A DNA stretch of 64,000 nucleotides from Bifidobacterium callimiconis (GTDB lineage: Bacteria > Actinomycetota > Actinomycetes > Actinomycetales > Bifidobacteriaceae). Under the pieces are notes generated by a model. It saw nothing but the letters and a program-made list of their open reading frames with translations, searched no databases and was not told the origin of the DNA. Each line of letters opens with the position of its first letter. The first letter of the stretch is position 1. Where the stretch lies: assembly GCF_003952005.1 (NCBI RefSeq), contig NZ_QXGJ01000007.1, positions 29,841 to 93,840 on the forward strand, in the 5' to 3' direction. This document shows, in pieces, positions 6,256 through 52,828 of the stretch. A program made the translations under genes and the position numbers.

Positions 6256-7383
6256 ATGAACCAGCAGAATCCAACCGCGTCGCAGACTCCGTCTTCACCG
6301 ACCCCGCAGACGCATCTGCAATCCCAGACCATCACGCTCAACGAGGACCGCAACGTCACGCTGTCCGCCTACCTGCAGGGCGTGGGAGGCCAGTTCCGCA
6401 TCGACCGCCGACCCGCCGTGATCGTCATCCCCGGCGGCGGCTACCAGTACTGCGCCGAACCCGAGGCCGAGCCCGTCGCCCTCGCCTTCATGCGCGCCGG
6501 CTACCACGCGTTCGTGCTGCGCTACTCCGTCGCCGAACACGCCGGCTGGCCCAACCAGCTCGACGACTACGAACAGGCCATGTCACTCATCCGCGCGCAC
6601 GCCGACGACTGGGGCATCATCCCCGACCGCATCGCCGTGTGCGGCTTCTCCGCCGGCGGCCACCTCGCCGGCTGCGCGGCCACCATGTCCAGCCCCGCGA
6701 CCCGCCCCAACGCCGCCATCCTCGGCTACCCGGCGCTGCTCGCATCCTCCATCCGCGGCTGCGATCCCGCCGCACCCGATGTGGTCGACGCCGTCGACGT
6801 CACCACCTGCCCCTGCTTCGTCTTCGGCACGCGCGACGACGCGCTCATCTCCGTCAACAATCTCGTGTGCATGATCGAGGCGCTCGCCGACAACGGCATC
6901 TCCTTCGAATCGCACATCTACGCGTTCGGCCCGCACGGATTCGGCTCCGCATCGCCGAGCGTGACCGACGTGAGCAAACTGTCCGGCCGTGCCCGCCGCT
7001 GGCTCGACGACGCGATCGACTGGCTGAGTGAGATCTTCGGCACGCTCACATTGAACGGCATGACCGAGCCGCGCTGCCTGCCGCACGTGAGTGCCGACTA
7101 CGAGCCGTCGTTCTCGCTTGACTGCACGTTTGGATACCTGCGTCAGAACGAGCAGGTGGCCGGCGTGATGAAGCCGTTCCTCGACTGGTTCGACGAGCAT
7201 TACCTCGACGTGGCCGCCAGCATCGGCCCGGCCATGCTGCACATGGCCACCACGCAGGGCAAGCCCGGCTTCTACGCGCTCGGCGACGCCCGCACCATGC
7301 ACGAGATCCTCGCCAACACCCCGTTCGACAGCGGGTACGCCGACGATCTCGCCGCCGCCCTCGCCGCCATCGACAAGCGCTAG
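6256..7383 (+). CDS. alpha/beta-hydrolase fold esterase (acetyl-esterase/carboxylesterase-like) with ~110-aa C-terminal extension
   Basis: VIVIPGGGY oxyanion region; GFSAGGHLA nucleophile elbow (GxSxG); RBS gggaaaggag. Confidence 0.7.
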   Translation: MNQQNPTASQTPSSPTPQTHLQSQTITLNEDRNVTLSAYLQGVGGQFRIDRRPAVIVIPGGGYQYCAEPEAEPVALAFMRAGYHAFVLRYSVAEHAGWPNQLDDYEQAMSLIRAHADDWGIIPDRIAVCGFSAGGHLAGCAATMSSPATRPNAAILGYPALLASSIRGCDPAAPDVVDAVDVTTCPCFVFGTRDDALISVNNLVCMIEALADNGISFESHIYAFGPHGFGSASPSVTDVSKLSGRARRWLDDAIDWLSEIFGTLTLNGMTEPRCLPHVSADYEPSFSLDCTFGYLRQNEQVAGVMKPFLDWFDEHYLDVAASIGPAMLHMATTQGKPGFYALGDARTMHEILANTPFDSGYADDLAAALAAIDKR

Positions 7384-7454
7384 CCAAGCACCCCTTCCGG
7401 CTCCCTTCTCTGAGGGGATCTAGAGGGCTGACCGAGGGGAGCGTCGGTCTCATA

Positions 7455-7646
7455 CTGCGGGTTCGTATCGATATGCGCACAAACCCGCAGTGAACACCAC
7501 CGTCCGCTGCGGGTTTGTAATGACGCATATACAAACCCGCAGCGAAAGAGACTCCACACTGCGGGTTCGTATCGATCCTTGTGCGAACCCGCAGTAAAGG
7601 CTGCTACTCACTGCGGGTTCGTAATGGTGCGTGTACAAATCCGCAG
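7455..7646. repeat. periodic array of four 36-bp hairpin repeats (stem ctgcgggtt/aacccgcag) separated by three 16-bp spacers; period 52 bp
   Basis: Units at 7455-7490, 7507-7542, 7559-7594 and 7611-7646; stems conserved, 18-nt loops related but variable; lies between convergent genes. Confidence 0.85.
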
Positions 7647-7660
7647 CACTCCCACCCCTC

Positions 7661-8761
7661 CTACATCATCGCCGACGCAGGTGCCGCTGCGATCGAATCA
7701 CGCCGCACGAACTCGGACCGCATGCGGATCGGCGTCAGATCACCGTCCGACACGTGCAGCAGCCGATCAATGATGCGGTTCGCGGCCGCCGCACCCAACT
7801 CGCGTCGTGGCACGCGAATGCTCGACATCTTCGGCGTGCAGATCTCGCACTTCGGGGTGTCGTCGATGCCGACCAACGACACCTGCCACGGCACGCGCAG
7901 TCGATGCGCCTCCAGGAACAGCATGAATGCGTACGCCACGTCGTCGTTGAACGCGATCGCCGCCGTGGTCGGCCGTGCCAGATACGCGGCGAACGCCTCC
8001 TCCGATCGTTTTCCCACCGGATACGCGCACGGCGTACGACGGAATTTCAGCCCTTCGCGCTTGCACGCGGTGAGAATCGCGTTCGCGCGCAGTCCGTTCT
8101 GCCATGAACTGTCCGGACCGGGCAGATACGTGATCTGCTGATGGCCGAGCCGCTTGAGCTCGCGCACCGCGTCGGCGATGCTGTCTCCGTCGTCCGCGTA
8201 CACCGACTGCACGCCGCCCACGATGCGGTTGATCACGGCCAGCGGCCGCACCTGCGCCACCTTGCGGATCGTGGCGTCCGACAGCCTCGACGCGCTCAGA
8301 ATGATGCCGTCCACATGCGGGATGGTGCGTTTGATGATCGCCAGCTCGCTCGCCTTGTCCTCCTCCGTGTCGCACACCATGAGACCGAAATTGCGTTCCG
8401 CGCACTCGCGCTGGATGCTGCGCGCGAACTGCGCCGACACCGGATTCTCCAGATCGGTCACCACCAGTGCGAGCAGTCCGCGCAGATGCTCCTCCTCGCG
8501 CGGGATGATCGACTCGCTGCGGTATCCCAGCCGTTTCGCCGTTTCAAGCACGCGGCCCAGCGTCTTCACGTTCACGCGCGACGGCTGCCGGAACGCGCGC
8601 GACACCGTGGTGGGGGAGACCCCGGCCGCGGCCGCCACATCCCATATCGTCGCGGTTCTCGACTCCTGAACGCCGCTCGCATTCGCAACGTCGCTGTTCG
8701 CGTTGTCGTTCGTCACGCCATCGTTTGTCACGCCATCGTGTTCGCTATCCATACCCGACAT
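7661..8761 (-). CDS. LacI-family transcriptional regulator
   Basis: N-terminal HTH (ATIWDVAAAAGVSPTTVSRAF) plus periplasmic-binding-like sugar-binding domain; start chosen at MSGMDSEH; N-terminal GVTNDGVTND tandem duplication. Confidence 0.8.
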   Translation of the reverse strand: MSGMDSEHDGVTNDGVTNDNANSDVANASGVQESRTATIWDVAAAAGVSPTTVSRAFRQPSRVNVKTLGRVLETAKRLGYRSESIIPREEEHLRGLLALVVTDLENPVSAQFARSIQRECAERNFGLMVCDTEEDKASELAIIKRTIPHVDGIILSASRLSDATIRKVAQVRPLAVINRIVGGVQSVYADDGDSIADAVRELKRLGHQQITYLPGPDSSWQNGLRANAILTACKREGLKFRRTPCAYPVGKRSEEAFAAYLARPTTAAIAFNDDVAYAFMLFLEAHRLRVPWQVSLVGIDDTPKCEICTPKMSSIRVPRRELGAAAANRIIDRLLHVSDGDLTPIRMRSEFVRRDSIAAAPASAMM

Positions 8762-16488: not shown

Positions 16489-18012
16489 ATGGCAGACAAT
16501 AACAACCATATTCCCAGCGTGTATCGGCCGCGCAAGATCACGGTCGCACGCGCCATCGGCTACGGTATGCCGGACATGATGGGCGGCGGCGCATTCACGC
16601 TCATCGGCGCGTGGCTGCTGTTCTTCTGGACCACCTATGCGGGTCTGACCGCCATGGAGGCGGCCTCCATCCTGGCCATCGCCCGCGTGGCCGACGCCGT
16701 GATCAGCCTGTTCATGGGCGCGATCACCGATAATCTCTACCGCTTTAAGATCGGCAAGAAGTTCGGCCGTCGCCACTTCTTCCTGCTGATCGGCTCCCCG
16801 CTTATGCTCGAGTTCATCCTGCTGTGGATCACCGGCCTGAACTACTGGTACTACCTGATCAGCTACGTGCTGTTCGAGCTCGTGGCCGCCATGGTGCTCA
16901 TCCCGTGGGAGACGCTGCCCACCGAGATGACCGAGGACTACAACAAGCGCACGATGCTGTCCACCGCGCGTCTGGTGATCTCCTCCGGTAGCTCGTTCCT
17001 GGCCACGTTCCTGCCCGGCCAGCTGTTCAAGATCTTTGGCGAGGACAATCCGATGTCGTACACGTTCAACGCGATCGTGTTCGCCGTGATCTACATGGTG
17101 TCCGTGTTCATCGCCTACAAGACCACGTGGGAGCGCCAGATCACCCCGGAGATGGCCGCCAAGCTCGAGGCCAAGGCCAAGGAGGGCGCCGGCCGTACGT
17201 TCGGCGAGCAGCTCAAGGCCTACATCGCCACCGTGAAGCTGCGCACGTTCCGCAAGCACCTGATCGTCTACCTGTGCACCTTCACCGCCAAGGACACGTT
17301 CAACGCCGTGTTCGCCTACTTCGTGGTCTCCGTGCTCGGCCTGTCCGCCGGCGTTTCCAGCGGCGTGCTGTCGCTGAACATCATCGGCCTGCCGTTGACC
17401 ATCCTCGTTGGCTACCTGCTGGTCAAGTTCAGCCCGCGCTGGGTGTGGTGCGTCGGCATCGTGGTCGAGCTCGTCGCCTTGGTCGGCTTCTGGGTGCTCT
17501 CCGGCACCAGCATGAACGACCTGACGATGTGGCTGTACGTGGTCGGTCTGGTCTACAACATCGGCCTGGGCGCCGTGATCGCCACCCCGTGGAACGTGTT
17601 CCCGATGATCCCGGATCTCGACGAGCTGGTGTCCGGCGAGCATCACGAGGGCCTGTACGCCTCCGTCATGACGTTCGTGCGCAAGTCCACGGTCGCCGTC
17701 GCCACGTTCGTGGTCGGTCTGGTGCTCACCGAGGGCGGCTACGTCGAAGGCCAGATCGAGCAGTCGGTCGGCACCCAGCACACGATCACCGGTATCCTGG
17801 TGTTCGGCACCGGCGCGCTGCTGCTCGTCGCCCTGCTCACCGCGGTCACGTTCCGTCTGAACAAGACCACGCACACCGTGGTCAAGGACGAGCTCAACCG
17901 TCTGCGCAACGGCGGCCACAAGGACGACGCCCCCAAGGAGACCCGCGAGCTCATCGAGAAGCTCACCGGCACCAAGTGGGAGCACATCTGGGCCACCAAC
18001 CCCAACCAGTGA
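16489..18012 (+). CDS. GPH-family sugar:cation symporter
   Basis: MelB/GPH-like sequence; start at MADNNNH; C-terminus homologous to the 1..465 fragment. Confidence 0.8.
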   Translation: MADNNNHIPSVYRPRKITVARAIGYGMPDMMGGGAFTLIGAWLLFFWTTYAGLTAMEAASILAIARVADAVISLFMGAITDNLYRFKIGKKFGRRHFFLLIGSPLMLEFILLWITGLNYWYYLISYVLFELVAAMVLIPWETLPTEMTEDYNKRTMLSTARLVISSGSSFLATFLPGQLFKIFGEDNPMSYTFNAIVFAVIYMVSVFIAYKTTWERQITPEMAAKLEAKAKEGAGRTFGEQLKAYIATVKLRTFRKHLIVYLCTFTAKDTFNAVFAYFVVSVLGLSAGVSSGVLSLNIIGLPLTILVGYLLVKFSPRWVWCVGIVVELVALVGFWVLSGTSMNDLTMWLYVVGLVYNIGLGAVIATPWNVFPMIPDLDELVSGEHHEGLYASVMTFVRKSTVAVATFVVGLVLTEGGYVEGQIEQSVGTQHTITGILVFGTGALLLVALLTAVTFRLNKTTHTVVKDELNRLRNGGHKDDAPKETRELIEKLTGTKWEHIWATNPNQ

Positions 18013-18106
18013 TCGCATAAATCTCCGGCCGCCGGCCCTCTCTCCCCGGCGGCTGCCCAACCTTACTGCTCCTCAGAAAAACCAAAGGACACCGAAGGAC
18101 CTTTCA

Positions 18107-20693: not shown

Positions 20694-20915
20694 GTGCTCC
20701 CTCCGAGGGAGGGAGCTGGCCGGCTACGCCGGACTGAGGGAGGGATCTTGCTCCTCGCAGGCTTCACCTCATCAGTCAGCCTTCGGCTGCCAGCTTCCCC
20801 TCAAGGGGAAGCCGGGTCATCCCTCCTTCATCCTTCCCCTCAAGGGGAAGCCCGGTCATCTCTCTTCTTCTCCTTCCCCTTGAGGGGAAGGAGTCGGCGT
20901 CAGCCGACGGATGAG
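20694..20915. repeat. repeat cluster: family-A unit + family-C array (ttcccctcaaggggaag hairpins, cggctgccagc…gccgacggatgaggtg)
   Basis: Read directly; begins 14 bp after the GH31 stop. Confidence 0.8.
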
Positions 20916-30472: not shown

Positions 30473-30895
30473 TGCTCCCTCCTCGGGCCATCCCTTCGTG
30501 CTCCCTATGTGGAGAGGCCGCGCAGCGACTCCATCTCTCCGCGCTCTCTCCCAAGGGCGTCTGCCAGCGGCCTCATCTCTCCGTGCTCCCTCCTCGGGAG
30601 GGAGCTGGCCGGCGTAGCCGGACTGAGGGAGGGTTTCGGCCCTATTCCCACCTCATCCGTCGGCTGACGCCGCCACCTTCCCCTCAAGGGGAAGGATGAA
30701 GGAGGAATGACCTGGCTTCCCCTTAAGGGGAAGCTGGCAGCAAGGGGAAGGATGAAGGAAGGACGACTTGGCTTCCCCTTAAGGGGAAGCTGGCAGCCGA
30801 AGGCTGACTGATGAGGTGCAGCGCTTTCACCCGATGATGTTGTTGCGCTCCCTCCCAGGGGCTGACCGGCGTAGTGAGGGGGTCACACCCTCACC
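30473..30895. repeat. large repeat cluster (family-A units + family-C hairpin array)
   Basis: Read directly. Confidence 0.8.
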
Positions 30896-34856: not shown

Positions 34857-35065
34857 TGATGGCGGCGTGAGCCGCGCATATTACATATGCTTGTTGGAAC
34901 CCCGTTCCGTGTTCATGCACGGGACGGGGTTCCTGTATTTCCGCACAATGTATTTCCGCACAATGTGCAGATGTGCGACGCGTCCGTCGTTCCACCGCAA
35001 ATAATTCGGGAAGCCATGACACAATAGTGTTTGAGTGTCGTTTTGGGTTAGAGGAGGCATACGCT

Positions 35066-36619
35066 GTGAGTGATCAGCAATGGCTAATCAGGGTCAATGG
35101 CGTCGACGAATTGCGTGTCGATGCGGGGCAGACCGTGGTGATCGGCCGTAAGCCCCTGCGCCCCATGGCAGCGGAGCAGGGGACGATCCGTCTGGATGTG
35201 GAGGACACGACCAAATCGATGTCGAAACGTCACGCCCGTTTCGAGGTGGCGGACAATCTCAGCGCCAAACTTGAAGACACCGGCTCCACGAATGGTACGT
35301 ATGTGGTTCGCGACGACGGCGAACTCATGCGTATTCCCGCCGGTCAGGCGTTCATGCTGCCGCGTTCTCCCATGCGATTCCAGTTTGGCGACGTTCCGGT
35401 GGATTTTCTGAAGGTGCAGGCCGAGGCGCCGAACCGTCAGGTGACCGATCTGTTCTCATTCGCCGCGCCGGGCGGCCAGCAGAACGTCGATGCCGCGTCG
35501 ATGAGCGTGGATGACATTCTTGATCTTCGCGCCGGTGAACCCACTGGTCTGTTGAACACCAATACCGTGCGCAGCCGTATCGATGCGTTGCATGATCGTG
35601 CCGTGGCCGATCAGCTGCGACAGGGGCGTGGCACCGGCGGTTTCGTGGGCGGCTGGCTGAACGCGAATGGTCAGCCAACCGGGCAGCCGGCGTCCATCCA
35701 GCCGGTGTTCACCGCCAATCGCGCGGCACAGCAGCAGCCGATCGCACAGCAGCCGGACCAGCAGCAGGCCGTGGTGCGTGACACGCAGCCGCTGCAGCAG
35801 AACGTACAGCAGGCGCCGAACGCACAGTCCAGTACGCCGCAGTCCAGTACGCCGCAGTCCGATCTGCAGCAGGCCGCCGCGCAGAACATCGCGGACGACA
35901 CCGCGCGCGATGCATCGGATGAACCGGTGCAGCCGGCAACCGTCGCCGTGAATCCGAACGTCGGCATCGTGGCAAACGATGCGAATGCCGTCGCGGCAAA
36001 CACCGCCGTAGGCGCCGCGGAAAATCCGTCCGAATCCATCCCCGCGACGACTCCCGAGGGCGGCGTGTCTATCACGGCCACGACGCCCGCCGCAACCGAT
36101 GCGGTCGACGTGCCCGTCATGCAGGAGCGACCCGAACGTCAACCCGAACCGCGCGATCTGTTCCAGGACGCCGCAGCGGCCCGTCGCAGCACTGCCGAAC
36201 GAGTGAGCGCCCTGCCCGTCATCGATGCGAGCGGTGGCGTGATCGGCGGAGGCATGCGTCCGAACGCCGCTCTGGAACAGGCCGCCGCAGCCGATCACGG
36301 TCCGGCACCTCGTACCGCGTTCACTCCGGTATTCGAAGCCGGATCCGTCTTCGAACGGCTGTCTCGCGGCGAACTCAACCAGCCCGAGCCCACCATCGAG
36401 GTGGACGGCTTCACTTCGGATCAGGCCAAGACGTCGCGTAACTTCGACGAACAGTTCGACATGGCCAACCATCCCGAGCTGCTGCCGTTCCTGGCGATGA
36501 ACCCCGCGCTGTACCCCGATCTGTACGCGTGGCTGGAACTGCAGGGCAACGATGACATCGACCAGGCGCTGAGCAACAACAGCGGCTATCAGGAATTCAA
36601 GGCCGCCAAAGAGGAGTAG
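35066..36619 (+). CDS. FHA-domain protein with long Gln/Pro/Ala/Thr-rich low-complexity C-terminal region
   Basis: FHA core (…VVIGRKP…RLDVEDTTKSMSKRHARFEV…EDTGSTNGTYV…); RBS gaggagg then GTG 35066. Confidence 0.7.
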   Translation: MSDQQWLIRVNGVDELRVDAGQTVVIGRKPLRPMAAEQGTIRLDVEDTTKSMSKRHARFEVADNLSAKLEDTGSTNGTYVVRDDGELMRIPAGQAFMLPRSPMRFQFGDVPVDFLKVQAEAPNRQVTDLFSFAAPGGQQNVDAASMSVDDILDLRAGEPTGLLNTNTVRSRIDALHDRAVADQLRQGRGTGGFVGGWLNANGQPTGQPASIQPVFTANRAAQQQPIAQQPDQQQAVVRDTQPLQQNVQQAPNAQSSTPQSSTPQSDLQQAAAQNIADDTARDASDEPVQPATVAVNPNVGIVANDANAVAANTAVGAAENPSESIPATTPEGGVSITATTPAATDAVDVPVMQERPERQPEPRDLFQDAAAARRSTAERVSALPVIDASGGVIGGGMRPNAALEQAAAADHGPAPRTAFTPVFEAGSVFERLSRGELNQPEPTIEVDGFTSDQAKTSRNFDEQFDMANHPELLPFLAMNPALYPDLYAWLELQGNDDIDQALSNNSGYQEFKAAKEE

Positions 36620-45039: not shown

Positions 45040-45360
45040 GCCCCTCCCTGTGGAGGGGCTGAAGGTGCGAGCGGACTGAGGGCGTGTTCTCTTCTTTCTT
45101 ATCTTTTACTCGTTACGCTTGCATCCTTGCTTTCGCCTCTTTGGGATGCTCCCCTCAGTCTGCCTACGGCAGCCAGCTCCCCTCAGCGAGGGGAGCCAAT
45201 GCTGTAATACTTCGGCTCCCCTCGCCGCCGAGGGGAGCTGTCCGCGTAGCGGACTGAGGGGAGCGTTCCACTCCCTCACGCCCCCATCTACGTTCCATCT
45301 TTTCCGGCTCCCCTCGCCGCCGAGGGGAGCTGTCGGCGAAGCCGACTGAGGGGAGTGCTC
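45040..45360. repeat. family-B repeat cluster (≥4 units) upstream of groES
   Basis: ggctcccctcgccgccgaggggagctgtc[cg]gcg[at]agc[cg]gactgaggggag ×2, plus partial units. Confidence 0.8.
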
Positions 45361-45400
45361 CGCTCCTTCCCCGCCCCATCTACGCTTCCGGCAAACTCCT

Positions 45401-47249: not shown

Positions 47250-48455
47250 ATGCCCGTCATCCCGCCAGTCCTGCGCCACCGCGATGCGCCGTACCGACAC
47301 GGTATGGTGCGGCCGACCATGCGCCTGATCGTCATGCTGGCGCTCGCCGGCGTGGCGTTGTTCTTCGCGCTGGCGATCGACAGCGCCGCGCTCATGGCCT
47401 TCTCCATCGCCGTGCCCGTGCTGATGGCGGTGTCGCTGATGCTGGCGTTGTTGACGTGGATACTGATCCCGCACATTCAGGCTCCCCTCTCCGAGGGGAG
47501 CTGGCGCCGCAAGGCGACTGAGGGGAGTGATGGCTCAGGTGCTGCTCCCCTCAGTCTGCTGCGCAGACAGCTCCCCTCAGGGAGGGGAGCCAGAGGGATG
47601 GCGGCGGGATGGCTGATTCCGCGCGCGGTGCGTATTGAATATCAATGGTCGCAGCTGGATCAGCATGATCGGGTGATTCGTCGCATCCGTACCATCGACG
47701 AGCCGTCCGATCGGGGCCTGTACCACTTGGACGCCACGGCGATTACTTGGTTCGACGTATTTGGCCTGTGGAAGATCCGACGCCTGATTCGCGAGCGCGA
47801 CGGTCGTGACGAACTGCGGAATCCGCCGGACTCGTCCCTTGCCGATGCCGTCGGCGCCCAACCGATGTCGTCGAGAACCGGCCGTCATGACGACGCCGAC
47901 TCGGCCACGGTCCGGCGATACGAGTCCGGTGACCCGTGGCGCATGATCGCGTGGCGGGCGAGCGCGCACCGCGGCACGCTCATGACTCGCGAAGGCTCTC
48001 GCGACACGCGGTCCGACACGCTGATCGTGATCGACACGGCCACTACGCAAGACCTTGACGCATGCCTTGCCGCGGCGCTGCATCGATGCGTACGATTGCA
48101 CGCGGCCGGCGTGCGTGTGGCCGTGACGGACGGCGAGACGGTATACTCGAACGCCGATGCCATCGAACGGTTTCTGACGGCTGCCCAGTCGGGTGATCAT
48201 GACGTGACTGTCGAGGACCGTGCACGGTCCATCGCGGAGACGCTGAACCGCCTGACCGGATATGTTGCCGTACTGCTGACGCCGGAGTCGAATTCGGATA
48301 TCCCCACGGTTGTGCACACGACGGTGGAAACCTCTGGGGATTCCCAAAATCCCAACGAATCCCGCAATACGAAGAACGCCGGTGAATCCTCGGGGTTGAC
48401 GTTGGAGCAGGCGCTGAGAGCCGCGCTGCCGAAACGCCGTCTTTGCGTGGAGACG
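47250..48455 (+). CDS. DUF58-family protein (MoxR partner) with in-frame repeat-element insertion; 3' boundary not defined by a stop codon
   Basis: Two N-terminal TM helices; DUF58 signature RRYESGDPWRMIAWRASAHRGTLMTRE; reading frame continues without a stop into the transglutaminase-like gene. Confidence 0.55.
47477..47598. repeat. family-B repeat element embedded in-frame in the DUF58 coding sequence
   Basis: gctcccctctccgaggggagctggcgccgcaaggcgactgaggggag…gctcccctcagtctgctgcgcagacagctcccctcagggaggggagc; translated as …APLSEGSWRRKATEGSDGSGAAPLSLLRRQLPSGRGAR… with no stop. Confidence 0.75.
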
Positions 48456-51400: not shown

Positions 51401-52031
51401 CTCGCGGGCGGTCAGAGCGCTCGGTGTCCTGATGCTGCTGGCGTTGGCGTATGCGCTCGTCACGGCCGGCATGTGGCTGCGCGCGTGGCGCCGACGTCGA
51501 CGACTGCGCGTGATCCGCGCCGGCGGGCCGGACATGTGGATCACGGCGTGGCGCGAACTGACCGATTCGGCATGGGATTGGTCAGTACGATGGTCGGCGA
51601 GCGCCACGGAACATGACATCGCCGAAACGATCATGCAATGGATGACCGGGTCGGCGGCAACCGCCGATCAGCCGGTGAACGTCACGGCCGAACCGGCAAG
51701 CCCCTTGACCGCATCGGTGGGAACCGAGGCCGCGCCAACAGGGGAGCGGTCCCCGAACGACGTCGCGATCATGCGTATCGCCGGTAACGCCGAATCCGAG
51801 GCCTATGGCAGTGCCGATCATTCACGTTCGACGTCGGCGGTGAACGCGGCGGTGAACGCGGCGGTGAACGCGGCGGACACCGAACCGGAGCAGGTCATCG
51901 TCATGATTGACGAACTCCGCACCGCATTGGCGAAATCCTGGGCCGGTCACGCCCGGTCATTGCCGCCTGCGATACGCGTCGTACGGTCGGTGTCGTTGCG
52001 GTTGATTCCGCGCTCGCTGTTCCGCCGATGA
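48456..52031 (+). CDS. transglutaminase-like (TgpA-type) membrane protein: DUF3488-like TM region, TGc core, C-terminal TM + DUF4129-like region
   Basis: ≥6 TM helices 48.7-49.5 kb; TGc motif …KTGYCAHYASALAVLGRAMGVKTRMVLGY…NQLHSWVEAYINGLGWIPFDVTP; start at GGAG-N4-ATG 48456 is a guess, no upstream stop in frame. Confidence 0.55.
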   Translation: MAGEQNTCDETRNRASDDVSEAARGNAKTSDAQRKLRAQSLPQSYDRVTAPLSEETPHQSPSDGGRHGRSGEGTPTPSTVQIANTACPSASPIPARIVQAFAIPALLALAVWQSSALFEAGWWTWFAYAVLPIVGLEAVIPAKRRRTIALLGVATGILAALAGVVLAVLRIRQYDLQSAVQTASASANASATSGAAASSIPTPSTSSTLDTLQGMNAQNQPDALPAAEKTGFTHILDALESGATEIYEQYVPVVISGYADALLIIAVAAIAIVLRLLLAARPLRNICTILPIVITAVAYAWAGQELALPWIAACLALGGILLWATHDHRTRMRPPTPIIASVLVAAIAVGFTPMAVTAAQRVDISLGDGGGVFSNGTINPMIDLKRGVNQAGATTVFTYTANKRLYFRLATLDDFNGDTWSFSQRLSERGGFYGGTADGQTASEPVDGNTSGSGRSGSFGSGGFQYSSYSPYNRFGYDTPLDQYLDILGGTKTGGLESADWEVDTKVTIDALNSRFLPVPSGSVDTNQVTSSGVWRRGGDSAFYSTSEATTPGMTYTASGTYIPPIQSAQDFSTIDALNAVKDKASEERTSQTLRIRIADNDSGIVTDTNGKRIGRFTQAGLKLDDSVIDEYDLQGRSWLIGIPDVVPNDSESTAGMTAYEVRGYTIELNPSAWLIRLMSGMYGALGAGMENPDGEFAFLVPPLQTLINNDGTIGGGSVTQDVENGDVTSQSTSDSGEVIDEQIPNGYDELPNALPSQVTAIVDQAKRQGVPINGSGAESQIASMEYLVNYFTNNGFTYSLNAPDGSGRNNMQVIGDFLDRKTGYCAHYASALAVLGRAMGVKTRMVLGYAPGGGASTDGSYTVASNQLHSWVEAYINGLGWIPFDVTPASGDDTSATVAAGQSSATQNAGNSASSQSPSTESSGSSSASQSPSSAPSTSGANSDGANKSGKANNSDGSGADDNSHGLSSMFATFSWSGFLASRAVRALGVLMLLALAYALVTAGMWLRAWRRRRRLRVIRAGGPDMWITAWRELTDSAWDWSVRWSASATEHDIAETIMQWMTGSAATADQPVNVTAEPASPLTASVGTEAAPTGERSPNDVAIMRIAGNAESEAYGSADHSRSTSAVNAAVNAAVNAADTEPEQVIVMIDELRTALAKSWAGHARSLPPAIRVVRSVSLRLIPRSLFRR

Positions 52032-52594: not shown

Positions 52595-52676
52595 GGCGGA
52601 TTTCCCAAGCGGTCAAAGGGAGCTGACTGTAAATCAGCCGCTTCGTGCTTCAGTGGTTCGAATCCACTATCCGCCA
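52595..52676 (+). tRNA. tRNA-Tyr (anticodon GTA), type II with long variable arm
   Basis: Acceptor GGCGGAT/ATCCGCC; anticodon loop CTGTAAA; T-loop GGTTCGAATCC. Confidence 0.8.
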
Positions 52677-52677
52677 C

Positions 52678-52749
<72 letters not shown>

Positions 52750-52754
52750 CTCAT

Positions 52755-52828
52755 GGCGGGGTAGCTCAGCTGGTTAGAGCGTACGACTCATAATCGTAAG
52801 GTCAAGAGTTCGAGTCTCTTCCTCGCTA
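52755..52828 (+). tRNA. tRNA-Met (anticodon CAT; elongator vs initiator not resolved)
   Basis: GGCGGGGTAGCTCAGCTGGTTAGAGC…; anticodon loop CTCATAA; GGTC…TTCGAGTC T-arm. Confidence 0.75.

Follow-up and report, generated by a model that had tools for sequence, protein, structure and literature searches.

Between two convergent genes of Bifidobacterium callimiconis, within a 64-kb stretch of contig NZ_QXGJ01000007.1 that was analyzed as a whole and is referred to here as the window, lies an array of short palindromes with a strictly regular spacing. Sequence inspection and a pattern search identify four units of the form CTGCGGGTT-N18-AACCCGCAG, the last of which has a 3′ arm, AATCCGCAG, that carries one mismatch. 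By chance, 0.05 matches to this pattern are expected in 64 kb, and four matches were reached in 0/100 shuffles. The 52-bp period was also called by Tandem Repeats Finder, at 7507-7648, and the region is predicted to fold far more stably than shuffled sequence on both strands (z = -8.7 and -9.3). A first-pass annotation, made from the letters of the window alone, had described four 36-bp hairpins with three spacers of exactly 16 bp, lying between convergent esterase and LacI genes; this geometry and gene arrangement are both borne out (Table 1). Its further statement that the stem motif occurs nowhere else in the 64 kb holds for the exact 9-mer as well as for the 18-nt half-site profile introduced below, with which the eight half-sites of the array score 14-25 bits in a scan that finds no other site in the window. 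The bare 8-bp core, CTGCGGGT, has three further copies in the window (24312, 24729 and 31949), which is its expected frequency.

A sequence logo of 36 units from this and related arrays reveals which part of the unit is conserved. The 8-bp core is almost invariant and is bordered by weak flanks, CTnCR on the outside and YYGTC on the inside, so that the identical half-site of ~18 nt is present in both orientations, alternately 10 and 6 near-random bases apart, with core-to-core gaps of 20 and 16 bp. The real module is thus the 8-bp core with its weak 5-nt flanks, repeated in alternating orientation at these two gaps, and the 52-bp period corresponds to approximately five helical turns. Of the shared 9-bp stem that had been annotated, the eight core positions are well conserved, while position 9 is merely a pyrimidine (Y). 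Both the 18-nt "loops" and the 16-bp "spacers" are variable between arrays. Within the window array the loops had been called related but non-identical, which is accurate for alternate units, U1 with U3 and U2 with U4, but not for the other pairs. Filler sequence is likewise shared between units U1 and U3 and between U2 and U4 of the window array, between U1 and U3 of the array at locus L038, and between U2 and U3 of that at locus L012. The units that share it are adjoining or alternate, and this sharing points to tandem duplication in steps of 52 or 104 bp.

Table 1. Coordinates of the array, its component units and fillers, and the adjoining features (window positions unless another record is named).
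Feature	Position	Strand	Sequence and remarks
Array, four 36-bp palindromic units and three 16-bp fillers	7455..7646	none	architecture identical on either strand
Same array in record GCA_018555655.1 JAFEJY010000005.1	about 17823-18014
Full extent including weakly conserved outer flanks	7450..7651		eight 18-nt half-sites CTnCR-CTGCGGGT-YYGTC, orientation alternating, 10 and 6 variable bases between
Unit 1 (U1)	7455..7490		CTGCGGGT-tcgtatcgatatgcgcacaa-ACCCGCAG; DNA hairpin -12.8 kcal/mol
Filler 1, 16 bp	7491..7506		tgaacaccaccgtccg; loop of alternative hairpin 7478-7519, -14.7 kcal/mol
Unit 2 (U2)	7507..7542		CTGCGGGT-ttgtaatgacgcatatacaa-ACCCGCAG; perfect 13-bp stem; DNA hairpin -19.9 kcal/mol
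Filler 2, 16 bp	7543..7558		cgaaagagactccaca; loop of alternative hairpin 7530-7571, -9.6 kcal/mol
Unit 3 (U3)	7559..7594		CTGCGGGT-tcgtatcgatccttgtgcga-ACCCGCAG; mosaic: interior bases 1-10 as in unit 1, remainder unrelated
Filler 3, 16 bp	7595..7610		taaaggctgctactca; loop of alternative hairpin 7582-7623, -15.2 kcal/mol
Unit 4 (U4)	7611..7646		CTGCGGGT-tcgtaatggtgcgtgtacaa-ATCCGCAG; one core mismatch; 15/20 interior bases as in unit 2; weak hairpin -7.1 kcal/mol
Alpha/beta hydrolase (esterase; BD-FAE, Abhydrolase_3)	6256..7383	+	stop codon 71 bp ahead of array
Non-array DNA adjoining array	7384..7454	none	copy of a different repeat family, GGCTCCC...GAGGGGAGCG
LacI-family regulator	7661..8752	-	stop codon 14 bp beyond array

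The window array has relatives elsewhere. A scan for the exact unit in a one-genome-per-species collection of 596 Gb returned 56 loci, among which arrays of the same architecture, with 3-5 units each in strict 52-bp register, were found at seven loci in B. tissieri DSM 100201 and at one locus in B. vansinderenii. In addition, the contig that holds the window carries a second B. callimiconis array, downstream of gltA. Counted by species, there are seven arrays in B. tissieri DSM 100201, at least two in B. callimiconis and at least one in B. vansinderenii, and the family amounts to roughly ten arrays in each genome. All 10 arrays lie in intergenic DNA, the 52-bp period holds in 40/40 of their units, both gap lengths are invariant, and every array opens with a CTGCGGGT arm and closes with a ACCCGCAG arm. 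A profile scan of the window together with a further 170 kb of Bifidobacterium DNA (~234 kb in all) found no solitary half-site; sites occur only within arrays.

The hosts are three related species from the marmoset gut, and this clade of B. tissieri, B. vansinderenii and B. callimiconis is the only place in which the family has been found so far; the closest relatives of the esterase protein beside the window array are likewise from B. vansinderenii (96% identity) and B. tissieri (90%). Most of the 56 loci are isolated hairpins in unrelated phyla, about as many as chance would produce for a 9+9 palindrome in a collection of this size, and the loci from Nocardioides, Burkholderia, Schlesneria and others proved to be unrelated hairpins or families resembling repetitive extragenic palindromic (REP) sequences that lack the 52-bp period. 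No such array is present in IMG/VR, INPHARED or PLSDB, and a phage or plasmid origin was accordingly set aside. The JGI metagenomes gave chance matches only, plus one unrelated palindrome array (locus L116, on a 1.2-kb contig). A literature search by sequence and keywords met no description of such a repeat family in Bifidobacterium, and the arrays apparently constitute a previously undescribed family of non-coding palindromic repeat arrays.

The genes that border the arrays have nothing in common. They include the pairs asparaginase|P-type ATPase, protein kinase|radical-SAM enzyme, rimM|trmD, DEAD helicase|GmrSD, gltA|dapD and esterase|LacI, as well as an oxidoreductase, a sugar transporter, and a group formed by an ABC ATPase, a G5-domain protein and a thioredoxin. 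No gene is common to the surroundings of the 10 arrays; the neighbors are unrelated housekeeping genes, with no cas, Nop-domain tas or transposase gene among them. Their orientation is convergent at three arrays, tandem at the array inside the rimM-trmD operon, and divergent at one array at least (locus L051).

At each of three loci compared between relatives the array is lineage-specific, as seen from its pattern of presence and absence. At the esterase|LacI junction, the two stop codons abut in B. vansinderenii (0 bp) and are 67 bp apart in two B. tissieri strains, with an ordinary GC-rich hairpin followed by TTTT in between, and neither species has an array there; the 277 bp found in the window consist of a copy of another repeat family (7384-7450) plus the array, both of which are lacking in the sister species. 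The gltA|dapD array has five units each in B. callimiconis and B. vansinderenii; in six B. tissieri-type genomes a single hairpin takes its place. Conversely, the rimM|trmD array is present in two B. tissieri strains, and no array occurs at this site in B. callimiconis, B. vansinderenii or related metagenome-assembled genomes (MAGs). The gene upstream of trmD was compared between loci L026 (6412-7050) and L107 (1364-2000) on the one hand and L108, L110 and L111 on the other. In the two B. tissieri strains it is rimM, from which the array separates trmD; in its place, B. callimiconis, B. vansinderenii and the tissieri-like MAGs have a divergent zinc alcohol dehydrogenase. Because the upstream gene differs between relatives, the rimM|trmD array lies at a rearrangement junction. 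It is 100% identical in the two B. tissieri strains, the sole strain pair compared, which is uninformative as to variation in copy number.

Two further observations concern the gltA-dapD intergenic region. At L065 6390-6590, L067 6400-6735 and L064 6750-6855 it contains a long-hairpin repeat of ~104 bp, GGGGAACGTGTGCGGTGTCAAGGCGCCGAAGGCGAAGGCGTAT...ATACGTCGAGTCTTCGGTAACGC...CTCCGTTCCCC, in one, two or three tandem copies depending on the strain or species, the number differing among B. tissieri strains. In B. tissieri (L064 6323-6370 compared with L065 6325-6372), the single hairpin GGGCCTGCGGTGAGG-aatct-CCCTCACCGCAGGCCC lies where the gltA array has its first across-filler hairpin; it is ~66% identical to the gltA-array hairpin, with the differences in symmetric transition pairs. 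The array could have arisen from a hairpin that was already there, or the likeness could be a coincidence, CYGCRG being self-complementary.

The gltA arrays of B. callimiconis and B. vansinderenii form one orthologous pair, on which divergence was measured, and they align with zero indels. Only 1/72 positions differ in the 8-bp cores (1.4%), as opposed to 9/50 in the inner flanks (18%), 13/50 in the 10-nt centers (26%), 9/40 in the outer flanks (22.5%) and 5/24 in the 6-nt centers (21%), or 36/164 of all non-core array positions (22%). For comparison, divergence is 9.0% (129/1437) at the four-fold degenerate sites of six nearby genes, which is not a fully neutral proxy as these genes have a third-position GC content of 80-90%, and 4.4% (14/317) in the 317 bp of intergenic DNA directly after the gltA array. 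By Fisher tests, the cores differ from the interiors (p = 2e-5) and from four-fold sites (p = 0.017), while the non-core positions evolve faster than four-fold sites (p = 4e-6) and faster than the adjoining intergenic DNA (p = 1.5e-8). The cores are thus kept by purifying selection and are conserved approximately fifteen times better than the intervening DNA, which evolves at two to five times the rate of the neutral proxies while its length remains constant. At the U4/U5 junction, B. vansinderenii has a perfect 14-bp complement, CACCAGACCCGCAG / CTGCGGGTCTGGTG, whereas B. callimiconis differs at six clustered positions and is non-complementary. Template switching between closely spaced inverted cores is a plausible cause of the rapid change of the fillers.

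As the cores are inverted repeats, their conservation could in principle reflect either base pairing or sequence recognition. Two pairing registers are thermodynamically feasible in the window array: register A, in which each 36-bp unit forms its own hairpin, and register B, in which the 3′ arm of one unit pairs with the 5′ arm of the next and the 16-nt filler forms the loop. In register A (36 units), 71.3% of cells are paired versus 71.9% when partners are shuffled, with 391/500 shuffles as high or higher, and the covariation score is 0.137 versus 0.141 (314/500). In register B (27 junctions), 74.5% of cells are paired versus 72.6% (23/500 shuffles as high or higher), with a covariation score of 0.172 versus 0.144 (16/500); this excess is within the false-positive range stated for the tool, as related sequences can give such an excess without structure. 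Partner-swap tests on the flanks gave P > 0.14 in every comparison. Deviations within the cores are almost never compensated, Watson-Crick pairing being restored in only 1/23 cases in register A and 2/17 in register B. Moreover, in a variant B. tissieri array (L039 2405-2660) the 3′ arms are the normal AACCCGCAG, keeping ACCCGCAG, yet most of the 5′ arms that they face are a different conserved 9-mer, GTGCGTATC, to which they are not complementary, and the 52-bp period is kept. Because partners pair no better than at random, core deviations go uncompensated and the arms of this variant do not match, the family appears to conserve sequence and geometry rather than covarying pairs. The 36-bp hairpin proposed by the first-pass annotation as a conserved structural unit therefore finds no backing, as it shows no pairing excess and its core deviations are uncompensated; what weak signal there is favors register B. 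Nothing in the array reaches the gathering score of any Rfam model, the best sub-threshold matches being 15-20 bits against cut-offs of 40-300, and a known RNA family was rejected at both gathering and permissive thresholds.

Together, these observations are best explained, at about even confidence, by the window array being one copy of a low-copy, lineage-restricted and non-coding family of extragenic palindromic-unit clusters, of the same kind as REP sequences and bacterial interspersed mosaic elements (BIMEs). The family is real and has an unusual evolutionary signature, and its place is most likely within a known class of genomic repeats. Three candidates had been put forward in the first-pass annotation: a multi-hairpin structured RNA, a tandem REP/BIME-type element and a protein-binding array. 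The second fits best, since arrays of one and the same design are scattered over unrelated intergenic regions in three related species. The annotation had also considered that a unit present hundreds of times genome-wide would be an ordinary REP family; the unit does recur in unrelated contexts, but in about ten arrays per genome rather than hundreds of copies.

In such a family, the cores would serve as the recognition site of a putative factor encoded elsewhere, and would be conserved as sequence, beyond their role as mere pairing partners. This factor may resemble a transposase or recombinase and spread the units, in the way that the REP-associated tyrosine transposase (RAYT) spreads REP, or may instead be a DNA-binding protein of the host. 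The selected cores probably act as the site of such an unlinked factor, and DNA recognition is suggested because conservation is at the level of sequence, the same half-sites occur in both orientations, the arrays have no polarity and the gaps are fixed. Fold-back of the closely spaced inverted cores would drive template switching and slippage, scrambling the fillers and altering the number of units. Any effect on the flanking genes, exerted through 3′-terminal hairpins on the convergent esterase and LacI transcripts, would be a by-product and not the reason for which the array exists.

In the enterobacterial REP/BIME-2 elements, which are mobilized by RAYT/TnpA-REP, extragenic palindromic units of ~35 bp form tandem clusters with fixed short linkers; they are non-coding, capable of fold-back as DNA or RNA, and dispersed over unrelated intergenic and intra-operon sites, and the presence of a cluster varies among close relatives. 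REP/BIME elements are recognized as imperfect palindromes of 20-40 bp outside genes, and the units here are 36 bp long with inverted 8-9-bp ends and lie in intergenic DNA in 10/10 arrays. They are also dispersed over many unrelated loci, albeit at low copy number. However, REP/BIME elements conserve the whole unit together with a 5′ GTAG-type tetranucleotide, and here conservation is confined to the 8-bp core and its weak 5-nt flanks; on account of these two differences the array is likened to the REP/BIME kind and not filed as a member. Further differences are the hundreds of units in REP as against about ten arrays per genome here, the symmetry of the present units, which show no Y/Z alternation and were not seen singly, and a cognate RAYT gene (Y1 HUH transposase), which genomes with REP/BIME elements contain, typically with REPs on either side, and which here is found neither in the window nor next to any array, whole genomes being outside the search. 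The dRS3 repeat of Neisseria, ATTCCC-N8-GGGAAT, also combines short inverted-repeat ends with a variable center, and forms intergenic arrays with other segments in between. As dRS3 units flank RS blocks of 50-150 bp and of variable length, these arrays have no strict period; dRS3 is in addition a known integration target. The Neisseria dRS3 arrays, or Neisseria intergenic mosaic elements (NIMEs), therefore resemble the present ones in their inverted ends, variable center and intergenic arrangement, but differ in period, phylum and sequence. In kind the family matches these Neisseria elements and the pneumococcal BOX elements as well as REP/BIME.

Several points nevertheless weigh against a REP/BIME-like family. 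No transposase, RAYT or other candidate factor was found in the window or beside any array, again with whole genomes outside the search, and hallmarks of REP are lacking: the copy number is low, there is no GTAG-type 5′ tetranucleotide, and the interiors are not conserved between loci. Of the marks of a miniature inverted-repeat transposable element, a non-autonomous transposon, inverted ends are present; at the filled esterase|LacI site, set against the empty one, neither a target-site duplication nor a clean insertion boundary can be seen, and the insertion includes a second type of repeat. The fast evolution of the fillers is known from a single orthologous pair. Finally, both gaps are invariant in 40/40 units and no solitary unit occurs in ~234 kb, which a purely selfish, decaying element would not predict; together these two features point to a constraint on geometry that is more directly explained by an array of protein-binding sites.

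An array of this latter kind, although somewhat unlikely overall, would be a cis-acting DNA element for cooperative binding, in which a putative dimeric or oligomeric protein encoded elsewhere occupies the inverted core pairs. The 20- and 16-bp gaps and the 52-bp period of five helical turns would put successive dimers in phase, and three or more units would nucleate a higher-order nucleoprotein complex that could act in nucleoid organization, as a barrier to transcription or replication, or as a decoy. Conservation in sequence rather than pairing agrees with such binding, as do the same ~18-nt half-site consensus in both orientations, gaps that are invariant in 40/40 units although the fillers are effectively randomized between arrays, the dyad-symmetric architecture without polarity, the confinement of half-sites to arrays of at least three units, never alone in ~234 kb, and the convergent, tandem and divergent intergenic placement. 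Dispersed tandem imperfect palindromes in which a dimeric protein has one half-site per half-palindrome occur in baculovirus homologous regions (hr) and in plasmid centromeres and iterons; with these the arrays share an architectural analogy only, as the systems are unrelated. Yet no candidate protein or linked gene was identified in the window or among the array neighbors, the center-to-center distances of 28 and 24 bp are not whole helical turns, and a host function fits poorly with presence or absence at the same junction in sister species. The bare 8-mer is, moreover, neither avoided nor enriched elsewhere, and the fixed spacing could be inherited from a single ancestral unit. A regulator with scattered operators was rejected, as half-site matches are confined to arrays in ~234 kb, and so was the core as an avoided or enriched word of the restriction, Chi or uptake-sequence type, as 12 copies were observed outside arrays against 6-8 expected. 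Alternatively, the arrays might be multi-hairpin RNA elements at the 3′ ends of the flanking mRNAs, acting on the model of REP/BIME in enterobacterial operons as bidirectional terminators without a U-tract or as blocks to 3′-exonucleases, with the conserved stem recognized by a putative RNA-binding protein or RNase. This is unlikely. It draws on the very stable folding of both strands, on the placement of three arrays between convergent genes and of one inside the rimM-trmD operon, on the weak register B excess in pairing and covariation described above, and on compensatory flank changes in the gltA arrays (CCGTT/AACGG and CTGGTG/CACCAG). The 36-bp hairpin shows no covariation, however, the register B signal falls inside the null range of the tool for related sequences, core mismatches are uncompensated, and there is no Rfam match. 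Invariant loop and linker lengths would be unnecessary for such an element, T-runs and predicted terminators or promoters are missing, at least one array (L051) is flanked by divergent genes, so that no mRNA has its 3′ end there, and B. vansinderenii does with 0 bp between the same two genes. Where an array follows a gene, its RNA hairpins could protect the 3′ end or bring about termination as a side effect, but this would account neither for the arrays in divergent regions nor for the invariant lengths. An ordinary intrinsic terminator was likewise rejected. It would share with the window array GC-rich hairpins directly after two convergent stop codons, but the array has no T/U tract and has four periodic copies in place of one hairpin, and arrays of this type lie between divergent genes as well. 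Across 7100-8000 neither a canonical terminator nor a promoter was predicted, and the array has no T-runs and fillers that are not T-rich; the orthologous B. tissieri junction has a normal hairpin followed by TTTT, and the sister species thus have either nothing or a normal terminator at this site. The earlier judgment that the array is too regular for an ordinary terminator is supported.

The regular alternation of constant and variable parts also recalls guide-RNA arrays of the CRISPR or tandem interspaced guide RNA (TIGR) type, in which case the arrays would encode small RNAs with two variable stretches, of 20 and 16 nt or of 10 and 6 nt, as guides for an unlinked effector. Two constant and two variable segments do alternate at a strict period, and the variable parts differ between arrays and evolve fast, but such a function is very improbable. 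As in CRISPR, a palindromic 36-bp "repeat" and a short "spacer" are regularly interspaced; unlike in CRISPR, the central 18-20 bp of the "repeat" vary, the "spacers" are 16 bp, fillers are shared, there is no leader and no cas gene, and several arrays of 3-5 units are present per genome. A TIGR-Tas array lies beside a gene for a Nop-domain protein and has two spacers of ~9 nt, flanked by two different repeats of 8-12 nt, or by stem-loops, that carry box C/D motifs (PMC12045711). TIGR arrays likewise alternate constant and variable segments at a strict short period, and some variants have palindromic stem-loops (PMC12045711), but the present arrays have no adjoining Tas gene and no RUGAUGA/CUGA consensus in the logo, their gaps are 20 and 16 nt instead of ~9 nt, and their constant parts are inverse complements of each other. 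Where TIGR has one array of 5-15 units beside its effector, the family described here has many small, scattered arrays of 3-5 units. The sharing of fillers by neighboring units indicates duplication, not acquisition, and orthologous arrays retain the same fillers with point substitutions only. No significant match to any filler was found in ~224 kb of related DNA, and the fillers were rejected as spacers with targets there. CRISPR and TIGR were accordingly both rejected, on the grounds of lacking cas/tas genes and box C/D motifs, non-identical repeats and fillers duplicated between neighbors; the first-pass annotation had already dismissed CRISPR for the shortness of the spacers and the want of cas genes, none of which is indeed present in the window or beside the 10 arrays. 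Less improbable, though still a long shot, is a broader reading in which the arrays are the cis half of a two-part system whose other half is encoded elsewhere, and in which the invariant geometry, the selected cores and the fast fillers are functional rather than by-products. In one form of it, a sequence-specific protein would assemble on the inverted CTGCGGGT cores at exactly five helical turns, with three or more units needed; in the other, the arrays would be precursors of unit-length RNAs with two variable segments, similar to TIGR, and served by an unlinked effector.

In Proteobacteria, Neisseria and pneumococci, palindromic repeats of the interspersed type have been studied in depth. 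With about ten arrays per genome, the Bifidobacterium family is small enough for complete study, and its evolutionary signature is clean, comprising conserved cores, fillers that change faster than synonymous sites, and an unvarying period. It therefore offers a tractable case for asking what maintains such repeats, whether a trans-acting enzyme, a binding protein or the chemistry of fold-back DNA, and whether inverted-repeat arrays are local mutation hot spots. In practical terms, sister species differ in their arrays at a given junction, which could make the arrays useful as typing markers, and automated tools are likely to mis-call them as CRISPR-like.

Two of the unrelated repeats returned by the searches have features of their own. 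In Nocardioides spp. (L002, L005, L011, L028, L029, L040, L043 and L044), a REP-like mosaic repeat contains a 36-bp hairpin with the same 10-nt ends, CTGCGGGTTT/AAACCCGCAG, and with an interior that is conserved, palindromic and covarying between species (CACCGGTCAGCCGGTG versus CGGCTGCCAGCAGCCG); the period of this repeat is 62-135 bp, not 52 bp. The metagenomic array at L116 (positions 1-340 of JGI Ga0074045_10233724, GC 49%) consists of seven copies of a perfect palindrome of 28-32 bp, CCGCAWATGGGTCGCGACCCATWTGCGG, at a spacing of 41-52 bp and with variable fillers. It resembles an iteron or centromere in appearance, and was picked up only through ends that match the search pattern.

The remaining functions encoded in the window are ordinary chromosomal ones, with no cas, tas (Nop-domain) or transposase gene among them. 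A second intergenic repeat family, made up of GGGGAGC/GCTCCCC and CTTCCCCT..AGGGGAAG palindromes, occurs at 7384-7450, 20794-20890, 30685-30797, 45213-45389 and 47491-47502; the first of these copies sits just upstream of the array, which the first-pass annotation had rightly kept distinct from this family. The segment 34973-40368 encodes an FHA and LRV-repeat protein (548 aa) followed by a 1245-aa protein, whose sole Pfam match is a C-terminal REase_MTES_1575 nuclease-like domain. Perfect short tandem repeats are found at 34934-34966 (15 bp x 2.2), 35825-35860 (15 bp x 2.4) and 51835-51876 (12 bp x 3.5), and three adjoining tRNA genes lie at 52595-52828.

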